From: Octopus vulgaris
Taxonomy: Eukaryota
Assembly: GCA_951406725.2 (NCBI GenBank)
Contig: OX597814.1
Span: forward strand, 105,958,001-106,022,000
DNA: 64,000 nucleotides
Direction: 5' to 3'
Shown here: positions 2,611 to 59,500 of the stretch, piece after piece
Layout of the letters: every line of letters begins with the position of its first letter
Position numbering within the stretch: position 1 is the first letter of the stretch
Translations under genes and position numbers: made by a program
Notes under the pieces: model-generated
What the model was told of the DNA's origin: nothing
Seen by the model: the letters and a program-made list of their open reading frames with translations, nothing else
Databases searched by the model: none

Positions 2611-3609
2611 TAAAACTCTTATACGAATAAGTAACCAAATTCACCCTCAGGAATCGAGTGACTGTCAGCTGTCAAACCAGGTGATCGAGAGGTCCCTACA
2701 CCTGCGAATTTGGGAGCTTTAATCAGGTGAGAATTGGGATTGTTTATTTTTCGGGGTAGGTCGTATTTTGGAATATTGACAAATTTAGGAATAAGTCTGT
2801 TTACGAAGTTGCTGCAATGGAGAAACCGCTAGGAATAACAGTTCAGATGAAACCCGTTTTCACATGTGCAGCACCTCCTTCTAAGGAACTAATAAAGGTC
2901 TGCGAATCTCTTCACGGCAGTCCAATCTATCGAAGACTTGTTTTCGTAGTCCGGTGGATGTTTCTTTAACGCAGATCTTGCGTCGCATTTTATTCTTTAT
3001 TCTAAAATCTATGATTTACGACTAAACTTATATTTTAATGACTTCGTTAAAATTCTGTACATACGCACACAAAAAAACACACACATACACTCACGCACAC
3101 ACGAATAGATGCCCAGTCGACATCTCACGCTACAGATTAACAAAACAGAAGTGACAGCTTAAAACAAATGTCTCCACCTTAAAGAATAATTGGGCAAATG
3201 GCTCGTGAAGCCGTTTGTAGAGAAAGTTATTGGCTGCTGTAATACATTTCACACTGTAGAATTACCCTGGGGACAACTTCTATTCTATATGTAAACTCTT
3301 TTTTTATGTTCTCTCTTTTCTCTTGATTCCTAAAATGCTAATGTTTTATGAAGAAAGGAAAAAAAAAACGTGACGATTGGGCGAAGCTATTTATACGCTG
3401 GCGCCTTGACACGGTTGTTTGGGCGCTGGCGACTGGGCACCACTGACTGGTAATTGAACTTGCTTTATCGAGGTCGCTTTTGTTTTCAGAGACAGTACTT
3501 TTTGGCACTGGTGGGAAAAACACGCGCACGGGCACGGGCAGAAAACATGTGCACACAGACAGAATAGATGGAGAGTGACAAGATGACAGGGACAGATTCA
3601 TAGATAGAT

Positions 3610-3651
<42 letters not shown>

Positions 3652-3774
3652 AGAAGAAGAAGAGCATAAAATATATTGAGCTCGATTGACATAATTTCCT
3701 TCTTATAAGTATAAAGAAATCGCTCTCTCTCTCTCTCTCACACACATATATATATATGTATATGTATATATATG

Positions 3775-3821
<47 letters not shown>

Positions 3822-3822
3822 C

Positions 3823-3923
<101 letters not shown>

Positions 3924-5290: not shown

Positions 5291-5324
<34 letters not shown>

Positions 5325-5407
5325 GGTATGTAGAAAAATACAACATGGACAAGAACGTATAACTCTTAGAAGACGACACAATAAACACGGACAGGACATT
5401 CGAAACC

Positions 5408-5502
5408 CTCAGTCTTCAGTCAAGAACCGGATCATCGTAGTAATTTCGGCTGATTAATCTTGAGATTACTAGATCACGGCCAGCCCTCCAAGAAAAACCA
5501 AG
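5408..5502 (-). ncRNA. Putative non-circularly permuted hammerhead ribozyme, array copy 1
   Basis: Minus strand reads uaguaaU-C-ucaaga-uuaa-ucagcc-GAA-auuacua-...-ucuuga-CUGAAGA. Helix III is 7 bp and helix I is 6 bp, both perfect and abutting the core. Predicted cut between 5464 and 5463. Confidence 0.6.
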
Positions 5503-6252
5503 CAACGAGCATTAGAAAAACTAAGCTGGAAGCGTAGATTTCCTGGAAGAAGGATCGAATGCATACGAACACCAGGACAGCAAAAGGGACAGATATAAAA
5601 AAACAAAAAACAATAATGGAATACAGAAACATGAAATACAGAAGCATTAACGGTGAAAACAACAGTGTCTTACGACTGATAACAAGCAAACAAATTTTTT
5701 TCTCTGGCGCAATGGAAAAAGCCTTTATAGTGGCGGACGAAAACAGCGATGTTAACAGAACGAGGGTCAGAGGCTGAAAGGCAGATTTCGGCCAACAGTC
5801 ACGTGACAGAGAAGAGGGAAAAGAAAAGAAAGAGAAGCAAAGGAAGAGAGAGAGAGAGAGGAGGGACAAACGCAACAAAGAGAGAGAAGAGAGAGAAAGA
5901 AGGAATCAGAGAGGAGAAGGGATGGGTGTCGAAGAATGACCTGTGAGTGCAGAGCGAGACAAAGAAATAGGAGGGTAGTGGAAGACTAGACCAAAGAATC
6001 AGAGGAAAGAGAAGAGAAAAAGAGGATGAGTAGAGAGAAAAGAGAGAGAGGGGGACAGATCAAGTAAAAATGAGAGAGAGAGAGACAAACAGAGAGTCGT
6101 ACCAATTATTAAGAATATGTGCTCACATAAATGTTAAGGGGGGTACGGGGCGCCTGGAATATATGTTAAGGTATGTAGAAAAATACAACATGGACAAGAA
6201 CGTATAACTCTTAGAAGACGACACAATAAACACGGACAGGACATTCGAAACC

Positions 6253-6347
6253 CTCAGTCTTCAGTCAAGAACCGGATCATCGTAGTAATTTCGGCTGATT
6301 AATCTTGAGATTACTAGATCACGGCCAGCCCTCCAAGAAAAACCAAG
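6253..6347 (-). ncRNA. Putative permuted hammerhead ribozyme, array copy 2
   Basis: Same motif as copy 1, offset 845. Confidence 0.6.
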
Positions 6348-7096
6348 CAACGAGCATTAGAAAAACTAAGCTGGAAGCGTAGATTTCCTGGAAGAAGGAT
6401 CGAATGCATACGAACACCAGGACAGCAAAAGGGACAGATATAAAAAAACAAAAAACAATAATGGAATACAGAAACATGAAATACAGAAGCATTAACGGTG
6501 AAAACAACAGTGTCTTACGACTGATAACAAGCAAACAAATTTTTTCTCTGGCGCAATGGAAAAAGCCTTTATAGTGGCGGACGAAAACAGCGATGTTAAC
6601 AGAACGAGGGTCAGAGGCTGAAAGGCAGATTTCGGCCAACAGTCACGTGACAGAGAAGAGGGAAAAGAAAAGAAAGAGAAGCAAAGGAAGAGAGAGAGAG
6701 AGGAGGGACAAACGCAACAAAGAGAGAGAAGAGAGAGAAAGAAGGAATCAGAGAGGAGAAGGGATGGGTGTCGAAGAATGACCTGTGAGTGCAGAGCGAG
6801 ACAAAGAAATAGGAGGGTAGTGGAAGACTAGACCAAAGAATCAGAGGAAAGAGAAGAGAAAAAGAGGATGAGTAGAGAGAAAAGAGAGAGAGGGGGACAG
6901 ATCAAGTAAAAATGAGAGAGAGAGAGAGACAAACAGAGAGTCGTACCAATTATTAAGAATATGTGCTCACATAAATGTTAAGGGGGGTACGGGGCGCCTG
7001 GAATATATGTTAAGGTATGTAGAAAAATACAACATGGACAAGAACGTATAACTCTTAGAAGACGACACAATAAACACGGACAGGACATTCGAAACC

Positions 7097-7191
7097 CTCA
7101 GTCTTCAGTCAAGAACCGGATCATCGTAGTAATTTCGGCTGATTAATCTTGAGATTACTAGATCACGGCCAGCCCTCCAAGAAAAACCAAG
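7097..7191 (-). ncRNA. Putative permuted hammerhead ribozyme, array copy 3
   Basis: Same motif as copy 1. Confidence 0.6.
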
Positions 7192-7940
7192 CAACGAGCA
7201 TTAGAAAAACTAAGCTGGAAGCGTAGATTTCCTGGAAGAAGGATCGAATGCATACGAACACCAGGACAGCAAAAGGGACAGATATAAAAAAACAAAAAAC
7301 AATAATGGAATACAGAAACATGAAATACAGAAGCATTAACGGTGAAAACAACAGTGTCTTACGACTGATAACAAGCAAACAAATTTTTTCTCTGGCGCAA
7401 TGGAAAAAGCCTTTATAGTGGCGGACGAAAACAGCGATGTTAACAGAACGAGGGTCAGAGGCTGAAAGGCAGATTTCGGCCAACAGTCACGTGACAGAGA
7501 AGAGGAAAAGAAAAGAAAGAGAAGCAAAGGAAGAGAGAGAGAGAGGAGGGACAAACGCAACAAAGAGAGAGAAGAGAGAGAAAGAAGGAATCAGAGAGGA
7601 GAAGGGATGGGTGTCGAAGAATGACCTGTGAGTGCAGAGCGAGACAAAGAAATAGGAGGGTAGTGGAAGACTAGACCAAAGAATCAGAGGAAAGAGAAGA
7701 GAAAAAGAGGATGAGTAGAGAGAAAAAGAGAGAGAGGGGGACAGATCAAGTAAAAATGAGAGAGAGAGAGAGACAAACAGAGAGTCGTACCAATTATTAA
7801 GAATATGTGCTCACATAAATGTTAAGGGGGGTACGGGGCGCCTGGAATATATGTTAAGGTATGTAGAAAAATACAACATGGACAAGAACGTATAACTCTT
7901 AGAAGACGACACAATAAACACGGACAGGACATTCGAAACC

Positions 7941-8035
7941 CTCAGTCTTCAGTCAAGAACCGGATCATCGTAGTAATTTCGGCTGATTAATCTTGAGATT
8001 ACTAGATCACGGCCAGCCCTCCAAGAAAAACCAAG
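7941..8035 (-). ncRNA. Putative permuted hammerhead ribozyme, array copy 4 (in the partial unit)
   Basis: Same motif. The partial unit ends at 8046, just beyond the structure. Confidence 0.6.
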
Positions 8036-8150
8036 CAACGAGCATTATATATATATATATATTTATATATACATATAAATATATATATGACATGACATAT
8101 TCAAATATATATACATAAATATATATCTGTCTATCTATCTACATATATAT

Positions 8151-20759: not shown

Positions 20760-21130
20760 AAGGAAATTCAACCGTGTTTCGTGGTCTGCTACCACAACAG
20801 CTCCTTTATAGGATCCAGTTAGCTTAAGATATCATCAGGAGAAACCACGCCCGGTTTCGGCCCCTAATCCTCTACCGTATTGACGTGACGTGCCCCTCCC
20901 TTTCGGAGGTGTCTTCAGCTCTGGTGTTGGGTGCATGTCTTTTTTCTTCTTCTTTTTTCTGTTCCCTGGCCTCTTCGATGTAGCGTCAACGAGTGTCAGC
21001 GAGCGACTGACTGACTTGTCAAATTTTTTCCCTTTAAATACATGCTGCTAGGCTCCAGCAGGCGGCACCAGCAAGTTGTCACGTGACACTGTCTCCACTT
21101 TAACTGACCAATGAAGGCGCGTAGTCTTAT
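20760..21130 (-). mobile_element. 5'-truncated copy (3' UTR only) of the HERO-like element at 55683-56820
   Basis: Colinear high similarity to about 55685-56050 (caaccgtgtttcgtggtctgcta...gtcacgtgacactgtctc...tgaaggcgcgtagt). Confidence 0.85.
20821..20920 (-). ncRNA. Putative permuted hammerhead ribozyme in HERO-like 3' UTR (copy 2)
   Basis: ucacguc-aaua-cggU-A-gagga-uua-ggggcc-GAA-accg-ggcgugg-u-uucuc-CUGAUGA. Differences from copy 1 in helices I and III are G-U compatible. Confidence 0.55.
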
Positions 21131-21654
21131 CCCACACTTCGCTATCAACCCAAAATTAGGTATCTGTAAATAAAGTCATCTCTGATGATCCATTCTGGGT
21201 AAGCATCTACATGCACTTGGAACATTCAATGCAGTTTTCCAAGCAATCATATCCGGGAAATTTTCGTAGAAACAAATGATATAAACTTGTGCTTACCGTA
21301 GTTTCTCCTACTTTTGCCCTGTACAGCATAACAAGTAATGCAATCAAGTATTCAGTAATTCTTCAGTTTTATGTAAAATTGCTTTTATACAAAGCTTGCT
21401 AGAAAGCCAAGCACTAAAGGGTGAGCGAATGTGTGAGTGATGTAAAGATGGCTGACACGAGAAGAAAAGGAGTCATGGTATACAGACATAGAAATATATT
21501 TACAAATTCTATACATAGTTGGGAAGAAAATTTCTTACCAGATAGCCATTCCTGCGACCATATATTTGGTAGTCATCGATAAAGTCATTGATTCCTGCAA
21601 TAAAAAAAAAAGACGATGCACCATTCATCAGCAAGTATTTTGAGGAAATTAATT

Positions 21655-29968: not shown

Positions 29969-30007
<39 letters not shown>

Positions 30008-30010
30008 ATA

Positions 30011-30240
30011 CTTTATTAAAAAGCAGCAAAAATATCACAAAACTGTTACTCAGAGTTTCACGTTCCCGTTCGTCAGACACTTTTGTTTAGAAATAAAATT
30101 ATCCGAAGAAAGGGAACGTGAAACTCTGAGTAACAGTTTCTGTGATATTTTTGCTGCTTCTTAATAAAGCATATTGCTCTACTTTTGGTATTCGAGTACT
30201 ATTTTTACCACCTTGTTTCGTATTTATGTGTTTACTCTGG
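30011..30240 (+). mobile_element. Penelope-like fold-back pLTR insertion in (TA)n (arms about 30011-30075 and 30103-30169, then an unpaired tail)
   Basis: Inverted arms each carrying an HHR; TA/TG microsatellite flanks. Confidence 0.8.
30044..30079 (-). ncRNA. Minimal type I hammerhead ribozyme; degenerate mirror copy on + at 30100-30135
   Basis: ugu-CUGACGA-acg-ggaa-cgu-GAA-acuc-u-gagU-A-aca: complete core, 3-bp helices I and II, near-palindromic helix III typical of Penelope-associated minimal HHRs. Confidence 0.8.
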
Positions 30241-30265
30241 TATATATATATATATATATATATAT

Positions 30266-30631
30266 ATCAAAATAAGCAACAAGGATATCCAAGGTAGTGT
30301 AGTACAATCGTTTCATGCTACTTCATTTTATTAAACACTGTAAGTATTACATCGGTTTTAAAATGTCGAGCAATCTTCAGCCACATATAGAATTTTTTTA
30401 ATTAAATGGACAATGGCTGAAGATTGCTCGACAATTTAAAACTGATGTAATACTTACACTGTTTAATAAAATGAAATAGCACAAAACGATTGTACTACAC
30501 TACCTTGGATATCCTTGTTGCTTATTTTGATTATAATCATCCCATTTGATTTATATGGATAATACCATACCAAATTCTGGTGCCTTTAACTTAAATACCA
30601 TATTCATCTGAAACTAAATTTTGCTGAACTT
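30266..30631 (+). mobile_element. Second Penelope-like fold-back insertion (arms about 30266-30383 and 30414-30531, tail to 30631) in (TA)n
   Basis: Arms are reverse complements; related to 12858-13724; TA runs on both sides. Confidence 0.8.
30298..30385 (-). ncRNA. Type I hammerhead ribozyme with elongated helix II; mirror + copy at 30414-30499 has GAAA changed to AAAA
   Basis: ugugg-CUGAAGA-uugcu...cauuuua...uguaa-uac-uuaca...uaaaaug...agcau-GAA-acgauugU-A-cuaca. Confidence 0.7.
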
Positions 30632-31669: not shown

Positions 31670-32297
31670 GCGGCAAGCTGGCAGAAACGTTAGCAGGCCG
31701 GGCGAAATGCTTAGCGGTATTTCGTCTGCTGTTACGTTCTGAGTTCAAATTCCGCCGAGATCGACTTTGCCTTTCATCCTTTCAGGGTTGATAAATTAAG
31801 TACCAATTATGCACTGGGGTCGATATAATCGACTTAATCCGTTTGTCTGTCCTTGTTTGTCCTCTCTGTGTTTAGCCCCTTGTGGGTAGTAAAGGAATAG
31901 GTATTTTAAGGCGGCGAGCTGGCAAAAGCGTTAGCACGCTGGGCGAAATTCGTAGCCGTATTTCGTCTGCCGTTACGTTCTGAGTTCAAATTCCGCCGAG
32001 GTCGACTTTGCCTTTCATCCTTTCGAGGTCGATTTAATAAGTACTAGTTACGCACTGGGGTCGATATAATCGACTTAATCCGTTTGTCTGCCCTTGTTTG
32101 TTCCCTCTGCATTTTGTGGGTAGTAAAGAAATAGATATTTCGTCTGCCACCACGTTCTGAGTTCACATTCCGCCGAGGCCGACTTTGCCTTTCATCCTTT
32201 CGGGGTCGATAAATTAAGTACCAGCTGCGTACTGAGGTCGATCTAATCGACTGGCCCCCCTCCCCCAAAATTTCGGGCCTTGTGCCTAGAGTAGAAA
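31670..32297 (+). mobile_element. Head-to-tail cluster of three SINE family A modules
   Basis: Repeated ggcggcgagctggc...gttctgagttcaaattccgccgaggtcgactttgcctttcatcctttcggggtcgat at about 31670, 31909 and 32136. Confidence 0.88.
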
Positions 32298-45694: not shown

Positions 45695-45766
<72 letters not shown>

Positions 45767-45767
45767 G

Positions 45768-45868
<101 letters not shown>

Positions 45869-45912
45869 ATATTATATTATACTATATCATATATATAAAT
45901 ATATATATATAT

Positions 45913-47187
<1,275 letters not shown>

Positions 47188-55647: not shown

Positions 55648-55682
55648 AATGATAATAACAATCACATATATATATATATATA

Positions 55683-56820
55683 GGAGGAATTACAACCGTG
55701 TTTCGTGGTCTGCTATCACAACAGCTCCTTTATAGGATCTAGTTAGCTTAAGACATCATCAGGAGGAACCACGTCCGGTTTCGGCCCCTACTCCTCTACC
55801 GTTTTGACGTGGCTGGGTCCTCCCTTTCGGAGGTGTCTTCAGCTCTGGTGTTGGGTGCATGGCTTCTTTGTTCTTTCTTCTGTTCCCTGGCCTCTTCGAT
55901 GTAGCGAGAACGAGTGTCAGCGGGCGACTGACTGACTTGTCAAATTTTCCCCTTTAAATATCTGTCGCTAGACTCCAGCAGGCAGTCCCAGCAAGTTGTC
56001 ACGTGACACTGTCTCACCTTAAATGACTAGTGAAGGCGCGTAGTTTTAGCCCGCGCATTTTCTAAACAACCGTCACCTGTCAGTCAGCGAAGCTGACCAG
56101 TTTCAGCTTGTCTCACCTAATGTTGTTATTTCCAGGCGGCATGTTTATGACTTTCAAGCCATTTTCGGTCTTCCCGCTTCAGCCATATATAGAAGCTGGC
56201 TTTTTTTACCTCCTCCTGTACTCTCCTTATTAGTTTTCGCAGCTCGGAGCTAGAAAAAAACAAATCTTCTTTTGAATAGCGTTGTCATTTTTCTTTCAAT
56301 GAAGCCTCTAGCCCCTACTGCCAGGTGGTAATACGCGACATTCCATCCTTGTTCTCTGCACTCTTCGATTAGTTTTTCGTACCTCTTCTTTCGTTCCTCT
56401 GCATTGCTGATGTTCTCTTCCCATGGCACTGTCAGCTCTAACAAAATTCCTATTTTCCGTTCTCTGTTTCATAGGACTAAATCTGGTCTTTTTGTCGTTT
56501 TTATTAGTGGAAATATAACTTGTCTTTCCAAATCCGTGGCCACCTCCCAGTATCCCTTCCATCTTTCGTCTATCTCGTATATTTTACTTGTAGACCTGGT
56601 TTTATATCCTTTTCCCTCCTTGTGGAAGTATTCTTTCCTGCGCTTTTCTACTTTTGGGTACTATCCCCTATTGTATCTCTCGATCTTCTCCTTGAGTGCT
56701 GCACCTATGATGCCGAGGACTTGATTATGCCGCCATGTATATCTTTCTAGTGCTAGTCTGCAATTTGACAGAACATGTCTAACCGTCACTTTCTCTCCGC
56801 ATCTACACTCATCGGTAGTT
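55683..56820 (-). mobile_element. HERO-like RLE non-LTR retrotransposon, 3' part (pseudogenised ORF about 56820-56150 plus 3' UTR)
   Basis: CRCGEKVTVRHVLSNC..RYTWRHNQVL..KRPDLVL..LLELTVPWEE..K.RY..VGARGF..SFYIWLKR with stops and frameshifts. Confidence 0.88.
55745..55844 (-). ncRNA. Putative non-circularly permuted hammerhead ribozyme in HERO-like 3' UTR (copy 1)
   Basis: ccacguc-aaaa-cggU-A-gagga-gua-ggggcc-GAA-accg-gacgugg-u-uccuc-CUGAUGA, enclosed by agcugaagaca/ugucuuaagcu. Predicted cut between 55797 and 55796. Confidence 0.6.
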
Positions 56821-56954
56821 TGTATGTATGTATGTATGTATGTATGTATGTATGTATGTATGTATGTATGTATGTATGTATGTATGTATGTATGTATGTA
56901 TGTATGTATGTATGTATGCATGTAAGTATGTATGCATGTATGTACGTATGTATG

Positions 56955-59214: not shown

Positions 59215-59220
59215 ATATAT

Positions 59221-59500
59221 ATATTATATTAAATTAGAGATAAAACCACTATTAGGCAAATCAAACAATGGAAAACATAAGCCAATACATAAAATTAATT
59301 AATTTATATTATTTTAAATATATATCAAAATTTAAAATAATATAAATTAATTAATTTTATGTATTGGCTTATGTTTTTCATTGTTTGATTTGCCTAATAG
59401 TGGTTTTATCTCTAATTTAATATAATATAATATTTTACTATAAAATTGGATTTAATCCTAAATCTGATTTTTCCCTGTAAGTTTGGATTTATTCCTAATA
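59221..59500 (+). mobile_element. Short fold-back copy (~99-bp arms, 59221-59319 and 59330-59428) of the 45913-46990 family
   Basis: Near-perfect palindrome plus the same tail (gatttaatcctaaatct..tttccctg.aagtttggattta), in TA context. Confidence 0.85.

Follow-up and report, generated by a model that had tools for sequence, protein, structure and literature searches.

The window analysed here, a stretch of 64,000 nucleotides from Octopus vulgaris, holds on its minus strand a 5'-truncated retrotransposon copy with a hammerhead-like motif downstream of its broken open reading frame (ORF). The copy is 89% identical to positions 2772-3895 of a full unit that we call family A, and is flanked by (TACA)n and (TA)n microsatellites, one on each side. 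The motif recurs in a second copy of the family and in a tandem array. We assigned the following features:

55685..56827, minus strand: family A HERO-type non-LTR retrotransposon, 5'-truncated, the last 1.14 kb of a ~3.88-kb unit
56126..56827, minus strand: broken C-terminal remnant of the ORF, with motifs seen in the translation that we take to be a CCHC-type knuckle and PD..E..W endonuclease-like motifs
55834..55844, minus strand: 5' strand of helix P0, its 3' end abutting A9
55820..55833, minus strand: hairpin Ph with a GAAA loop, separating P0 from stem II, with one mismatch in this copy
55814..55819, minus strand: 5' strand of stem II, placed ahead of the cleavage site; G10.1 is 55819 or 55820
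55798..55812, minus strand: 5' strand of helix X, a 4-nt bulge and the 5' strand of helix III, last base U16.1
55796..55797, minus strand: predicted cut in GUA, separating 55797 from 55796, with the fixed 3' end 112 nt downstream
55783..55796, minus strand: 3' strand of stem I, a linker of 2-3 nt and the 3' strand of stem II, last base C11.1
55769..55782, minus strand: GAAA (G12-A15.1), 3' strand of helix III and 3' strand of helix X
55756..55768, minus strand: 5' strand of stem I and CUGAUGA (C3-A9)
55745..55755, minus strand: 3' strand of P0, immediately 3' of A9
55685..55744, minus strand: tail to the 3' end common to all copies (31 aligned), with the presumed internal start of reverse transcription
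20761..21132, minus strand: second family A copy, shorter, with the same motif (CUGAUGA from 20838)
5314..8047, minus strand: non-coding 844-bp tandem array of 3.2 units, with four motif copies of the same wiring and different helices

Translation of the ORF remnant ends with the stop at 56128-56126, and the motif lies 315-330 nt downstream. A preliminary description of the window had placed it "about 350 nt" behind an RLE ORF; the position relative to the ORF stands, the distance is shorter. The motif string quoted there is present letter for letter on the minus strand: CCACGUC (55812-55806), AAAA, CGGU (55801-55798), A17 (55797), GAGGA(G) (55796-55791), GGGGCC (55788-55783), GAAA (55782-55779), GACGUGG (55775-55769), UUCCUC (55768-55763) and CUGAUGA (55762-55756). 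The cleavage site follows from the NUH rule established for hammerheads. No Rfam family matches 55680-55900 at E<=10; the best 150 of 330 rows for the whole window contain only microsatellite-driven miRNA matches, and three further motif copies gave one chance match.

The tail of family A has 2357 candidate copies in the 2.8-Gb genome. Aligned copies are about 90% alike and share a single 3' end 112 nt past the predicted cut (31 copies). The family A protein contains a reverse transcriptase (RT) domain by Pfam, its best solved relatives are R2 proteins, and named protein relatives are known from sea urchin, lancelet, coral and fish. By eye, the single ORF shows motifs of a finger, a knuckle and a nuclease; Pfam gave no match for them, with two fragments of the C-terminal part tested. 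Set by eye against HERO-1_BF in the supplement of PMC7650587, the RT is identical at 11/14 and 18/25 residues of two blocks, and the R4 row differs. These residues and relatives agree with the HERO-like host named in the preliminary description, and we call the element HERO-type.

Another HERO family of this genome, B, has a short spacer and carries the motif at the same spacing and with different helices (loci L116, L117, L119, L120, L124, L125, L127-L129 and L249-L254). Four loci, L085, L092, L095 and L097, are internally deleted forms of family A in which reference ~540-710 abuts 3520-3780 and both spacer and 5' region are retained; they are candidates for small non-autonomous units. Small hairpins stand between the ribozyme and the fixed 3' end in both families (window 55744-55685 in A, the L116 tail in B), possibly as a signal for the start of reverse transcription.

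Comparison of family A, family B and the array, before other genomes were examined, gave us the reading of the motif as a rewired hammerhead. Its blocks are ordered, 5' to 3', as P0, hairpin, 5' strand of stem II, X, III with UH and the cut, I, short linker, 3' strand of stem II, GAAA, III, X, I, CUGAnGA and P0. The strand before GAAA finds its stem II partner upstream of the cut, GGCCCC with GGGGCC in family A and the reverse in family B. The strand after CUGAUGA pairs further upstream still, forming P0, and the hairpin fills the gap with zero unpaired bases. All three inter-block links are thus closed, the RNA entering and exiting through a flush four-way junction at A9/G10.1. From the sequence comparisons that follow, we consider this wiring very likely.

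The preliminary description had correctly seen a non-circularly permuted hammerhead architecture common to the array and the element, with different helix sequences in each family, and a short linker between stems I and II. It gave the stem II strand no partner. Its enclosing stem is real, 55844-55834 pairing with 55755-55745 with one G.A mismatch, but its role is not accessory: as P0, it belongs to the four-way junction that replaces the A9-G10.1 link.

A loose pattern from GAAA to CUGAnGA, through which family B came to light, matches the genome 3083 times; its reversed control matches 172 times. We then applied a core descriptor made only of CUGAnGA, GAAA, UH, helix III of at least 3 and stem I of at least 4 to metagenome loci, namely 80 of 300 related loci fetched by protein alignment. 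It returned 35 matches in 31/80 loci, all sense, with 0 antisense and 0.1 per shuffled set, so that the motif is beyond chance, as had been claimed; one match, lying inside an ORF, is a chance hit. Together with four instances from the Octopus vulgaris genome, and after removal of 10 redundant and 1 truncated, they make up 28 non-redundant instances.

The junction, defined as stem II, P0 and a flush hairpin of at least 4 each, is present in 24/28 of these core-picked instances, where 0.14 are expected when the upstream 75 nt are shuffled. The misses are the in-ORF match, L135, L201 and one family B copy with a P0 change. The core letters CUGAnGA, GAAA and NUH served as the filter, and pairing at the first four positions of II, P0 and the hairpin is built into the selection of the 24; the G10.1-C11.1 pair, which the test did not require, is G-C in 23/24 and G-U in 1/24 junction-bearing instances. 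Nearly every helix position among the 24 shows 2-6 pair types: 3-5 per position in P0 (4-15 bp) and in stem I, and 3-6 at the variable positions of stems I and III, which with A15.1-U16.1 flank the cut. The flush hairpin takes 13-37 nt. Across proteins that are 30-60% identical, CUGAnGA, GAAA, UH and G10.1-C11.1 are kept while all helices change, and the core lies on the sense strand and in the spacer every time.

Among loci with at least 250 nt after the ORF end, 26/32 hold the core. The 6/32 with no core match are L154 (a near match), L139, L190, L191, L204 and L206; some core-less loci perhaps lack the motif through a short spacer. Motif-bearing loci fall on all main branches of a tree made by a quick method, containing no named HERO element or outgroup, on which kink-turn and bulge types were assigned by eye. 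L204, L206 and L207 branch off far from the other relatives and show no motif in the flanking sequence available; they could mark the edge of the ribozyme's range. The viral contigs contained no relative among 33 stretches. We also looked for a compensatory P0 change within a family A subfamily and saw none: the changes occur at the mismatch and outside. Loci L231-L237 are an older family A subfamily, with a different tail and with changes outside the paired P0 positions.

A pair of helices inserted at A9/G10.1 could disturb the core, and the literature examined yielded no tested precedent for it. A viroid hammerhead tolerates an extra core base, placed between A9 and G10.1. Only small core insertions are reported in the part of Perreault 2011 covered here (PMC3088659).

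Short links between the blocks bring the far ends of I, II and X together in a second junction, which requires a sharp bend. In a kink-turn, two helices are separated by a 3-nt bulge and, after it, G.A / A.G pairs in tandem. This pattern lies between III and X in 16/28 instances with G-A on both strands, and in 20/28 under a looser rule (raw counts). Families A and B, L138, L174 and L176 have at that place a bulge of 4-6 nt that is not a kink-turn. Spacing from G10.1 to U16.1 is narrow, at 19-25 nt. Two solutions, kink-turn and bulge, at one and the same place would favour a monomer over an obligate dimer.

The motif of the window copy is itself damaged. Stem II retains 4-5/6 pairs, and the altered tract corresponds to the 3' strand of the hairpin plus the 5' strand of stem II; all six stem II pairs are present in copies such as L002. 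The predicted minimum-energy folds of the window copy (z -3.07) and of L002 both pair the G run with the stem I strand, an inactive form. A stem II of at least 5 bp is kept in 0/17 pattern-picked and 9/26 top-scoring family A copies. The modal form of the damaged tract occurs in 2/31 copies, against 19-26/31 elsewhere; a control G run in the 5' region is also variable (modal form 3/10). At window 55824-55813, the G/C tract that supplies the hairpin and stem II strand varies from copy to copy almost without exception, a frequent change being C-to-G replacement.

Selection for dead ribozymes was considered as the source of this variable tract and rejected, the control G run being equally variable. 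G runs seem unusually unstable in the Octopus vulgaris genome. The tract damage is probably decay of copies, and the window copy probably a weakened or dead relic; a cleavage assay on the window copy could therefore fail without refuting the family.

We turned to the full-length organization of family A with a search for its 5' region (first 631 nt), which gave 149 candidates, of which 40 were scored and 30 fetched. In 16/30 fetched loci the sequence continues, without any indel, across the join between the unit start and the 3' end of the element itself: 14 cross by 62-990 nt, 12 of them through the cut, and 2 by ~14 nt. Four other loci begin 4-9 nt inside the unit and the rest further in. 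Around this site the 5' ends of insertions cluster mildly, close to where the RT would start: three or four lie 4-9 nt after the join (L077, L088, L079, L095) and two more precede it by ~14 nt. In full units the tail (equivalent to 55744-55685) runs directly into the 5' region. What the preliminary description had called a "3' UTR" is indeed downstream of the ORF; it is a spacer, bounded by the end of one ORF and the start of the following one.

Nine insertions have both repeats. After masking of CpG sites and of the variable tract, the two repeats of an insertion, upstream and downstream, have 24 variants in common where 6.1 are expected (0/20000 permutations), and 20/24 come from two insertions, L214 and L220. 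Such sharing shows that the repeats descend from one lineage; it does not show that they came from one molecule. In eight metagenome loci an ORF end is followed by the motif-bearing spacer and then by an ORF start, although an assembler may join repeat contigs head to tail in metagenomes. At L184:190-7250, two HERO units lie head to tail, each with its own motif; as they are only 71% alike, one circle cannot yield both. RNA contigs over the join region (four runs, type guessed) have their depth mainly in the 3' UTR, with one low-depth contig spanning the join; they are silent on cleavage, strand and circles.

Footprints of cleavage were sought as insertions that start at the cut. A pattern forbidding the natural four upstream letters returned 2/2 family A matches that start exactly there and have unrelated flanks, one of them already seen when the test was set up. 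At four control positions the match counts were 0, 0, 3 and 6; all nine matches were internal variants, with 0 true truncations. For family B, the same test, set in advance, returned six matches, 6/6 of them insertions that start at the cut, reach the 3' end and have unrelated flanks, a count taken at the cut alone. The cut placed by the preliminary description at 55797/55796 is thus where eight insertions begin at the equivalent position. All eight have a T before the join, as would be expected if the RT adds an A when running off a true RNA end. A stall of the RT at the helix boundary could give a similar stop.

Other signals at the cut are neutral or absent. Indels are not enriched there in family A (5/100 versus 12/100 at a control stretch), the 5' ends of the 16 long copies do not pile up at it, and 2 of ~40 array 5' ends lie within 5 nt of it, which is not significant. 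A17 reads U in 5/100 family A copies, compatible with cleavage. We take it as likely, with these footprints as indirect signs, that the ribozyme cleaves after H17 in vivo.

The 844-bp array belongs to a family with 1322 candidates that are 99-100% alike, and which is very young. Its arrays have one 3' end, next to (TA)n in 10/10 distinct ends seen, and scattered 5' ends, with up to several units per array. By BLAST, the array has no match outside the motif to family A or to the 80 metagenome loci, in line with the earlier statement that array and HERO element are unrelated. It looks like a retrozyme: it is a non-coding tandem unit as in a non-LTR retrozyme, but has not the type I hammerhead of one. 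Elsewhere in the window, long inverted repeats (45696-47137, 30261-30535, 30007-30173 and 59215-59433; opposite-strand self-matches of 84-95%) are probably DNA-transposon or foldback elements, and a dispersed repeat of ~240 bp at 31670-32252, tandem at 31670-32109, has copies at 2479, 17451, 27586, 28102 and 41566.

We now propose a replication route for these elements, and lean towards a model in which the rewired hammerhead cuts a head-to-tail transcript to unit-length RNA, the ends are rejoined, and the RT runs round from a fixed internal site. P0 would stack on the hairpin and stem II on the core as usual, while the kink-turn or the 4-6 nt bulge would bend III/X back to the far ends of I and II, allowing a single molecule to fold. 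A transcript spanning two spacers would be cut after H17 in both, as the genomic footprint suggests. After the cuts, P0, II, X and III (19-33 bp in total) would bridge the nick and favour rejoining; by topology, four helices would span it, against one in types I and III.

Rejoining might be carried out by the ribozyme itself or by a host tRNA ligase / RtcB; or the RT might cross the nick. A rejoined or bridged template is, in our judgement, rather probable. In both families, A and B, target-primed reverse transcription would start ~112 nt beyond the cut and pass the cut site; in the long copies seen in the genome, the RT would have run past the unit start and into the spacer again, and in a small share of copies it would have run off at an unjoined nick. 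Cutting for "release of units from tandem transcripts", one of the roles suggested in the preliminary description, fits the head-to-tail layout. The other, the definition of transcript ends, does not hold for the end that is copied: all copies end ~112 nt beyond the cut and run through it. It is possible, more tentatively, that the HERO clade at large replicates via ribozyme-made circular RNA with rolling-circle target priming by its own RT, that an L7Ae-family protein controls the kink-turn, and that the 844-bp arrays are non-coding parasites of the route.

The genomic data do not separate the circle model from an uncut linear tandem RNA. The ribozyme might cut, with cutting used to provide a 5' end for translation or to curb read-through, while the template is linear uncut read-through RNA from (partial-)tandem loci, copied from an internal RT start as in Penelope and with no circle. 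This would explain the seamless join, the shared variants and the absent scars equally well; it has a precedent in uncut RNA as the main substrate of a Penelope element, according to the part of PMC11167929 covered, and agrees with the two unlike units in tandem at L184 and with the few copies starting at the cut, which fit linear cut RNA. But repeats would then shorten at each round unless renewed, and among 30 family A loci none has a redundancy of >990 nt. Nor does a linear template explain why the wiring should span the nick with 19-33 bp, or why there are multi-unit arrays of near-identical units, and we regard it as unlikely. The fold might also be active only as a dimer, in which motif 1 supplies CUGAUGA and the 5' strands of I and II, and motif 2 the cut site and GAAA, so that a two-spacer RNA is cut and a single-motif circle is stable. 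Helix III is far from the far ends of I and II in the hammerhead crystal structure (PMC10085705, in part), amphibian retrozyme hammerheads cut better as dimers (PMC7229834, in part), and a dimer would account for the template staying whole. Against this, the kink-turn or bulge sits exactly where a monomer needs its sharp bend and the spacings are tightly kept, which leaves the dimer quite improbable.

Two further readings do away with the cut or with the new wiring. If the core letters were a relic and the fold kept for binding or RT positioning, without cutting, the broken stem II of most family A copies and the lack of an indel scar would be understandable; yet core letters and G10.1-C11.1 are kept while the helices change, eight insertions start at the scissile position, and the control G run is as variable as the damaged tract, so that the damage looks like copy decay. 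We find this reading highly improbable. Closest to the preliminary description would be a plain type-SGC hammerhead that sets the transcript 3' end. Block order and short I-to-II linker match type SGC, and in family A alone the sequence after CUGAUGA permits a weak stem containing G.U pairs. The pairing of the stem II strand with the strand directly after CUGAnGA nevertheless lacks its first pair, 10.1/11.1, in 24/24 instances (paired 0/24), is at shuffle level at the other positions, and in family A would set U against C at 10.1/11.1. With copies that end ~112 nt past the cut in addition, we give this reading hardly any credence.

Relative to known hammerheads, the novelty of the motif lies in its wiring; comparisons here refer to the parts of the cited papers that were covered. 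Type-SGC and type-CSG hammerheads cleave in vitro (Eckert et al. 2023, PMC10085705), and type SGC comes from metatranscriptomes and metagenomes, with none from genomes of known organisms. With these types (HRIMA-1 and variants), the HERO motif shares the full core, the non-circular order of site, GAAA and CUGAnGA, the I-to-II linker of ~3 nt, and a helix joining the other sides of stems I and II (named "I" in PMC10085705, X in the HERO motif). Eckert et al. assume that in SGC/CSG the CUGAnGA block runs on into its stem II strand, whereas in the HERO motif the two are split and joined by a four-way junction (P0 and hairpin). In the HERO motif, moreover, none of the three links between blocks is open, and III and X are separated by a kink-turn or bulge. 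The HERO motifs sit in animal retrotransposons, the SGC ones in environmental RNA/DNA. The words "kink" and "k-turn" are absent from the supplement of PMC10085705 by keyword search. The permuted order noted in the preliminary description is not new in itself: the S-G-C block order is already published (PMC10085705), and it is the stem II wiring that is new in the literature searched. That search, whose scope excluded subscription journals, Repbase Reports and bioRxiv supplements, found no description of a rewired hammerhead or of a hammerhead in HERO; Eckert 2023 was its only match on type-SGC hammerheads, ribozymes in HERO and RLE elements led to two reviews of R2, and the literature on four-way junctions, k-turns and L7Ae, judged from listings, gave nothing on the HERO motif.

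Animal non-LTR retrozymes resemble the present elements in their tandem one-hammerhead units, dispersed arrays and proposed spread by circular RNA (PMC7229834; bioRxiv 10.64898/2026.07.22.740005), and RtcB can close animal retrozymes into circles in vitro (Cervera and de la Pena 2020, PMC7229834). They are non-coding, 170-400 nt long, Penelope-linked and equipped with type I hammerheads (same sources), while the HERO element is a 3.9-kb unit that encodes its own RT, with a ribozyme of another topology, not type I. Penelope-like elements are likewise autonomous, with (partial-)tandem copies, pseudo-LTRs, a hammerhead in the repeat and an internal RT start (PMC11167929, PMC6155905); cleavage was not needed for the Penelope element tested (PMC11167929). 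Their telomerase-like RT, GIY-YIG nuclease and minimal type I hammerheads set them apart (PMC11167929, PMC6155905). The HERO element has instead an R2-like RT and HERO motifs.

R2 carries an HDV-like ribozyme at a fixed 5' end and is copied from the 3' end of its RNA. The HDV-like ribozyme in R2 was reportedly described by Ruminski in 2011. The HERO element differs in having a hammerhead, placed in the spacer, and no fixed 5' end. R2 and other RLE elements have a single ORF (zinc finger, RT, C-terminal endonuclease) and a ribozyme that frees RNA from a longer transcript (PMC7650587, PMC4640811); the HERO element likewise has a single ORF, with an RT and a putative zinc finger and C-terminal endonuclease, and a ribozyme that would do the same.

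If the proposed wiring is true, the hammerhead fold would be widened beyond the six permutations thought possible, and a block assumed unbreakable would have been broken. Non-circular hammerheads would then be present in thousands of animal-genome copies missed by Rfam. A family with an R2-like RT would gain a route of replication without a fixed 5' end and with an internal start, which would form a bridge between LINEs on one side and Penelope elements, retrozymes and viroid-like circles on the other. Uses in making circular RNA and in RNA-templated insertion would be open to a ribozyme that holds together the ends it has cut and to an RT that starts inside a circle.
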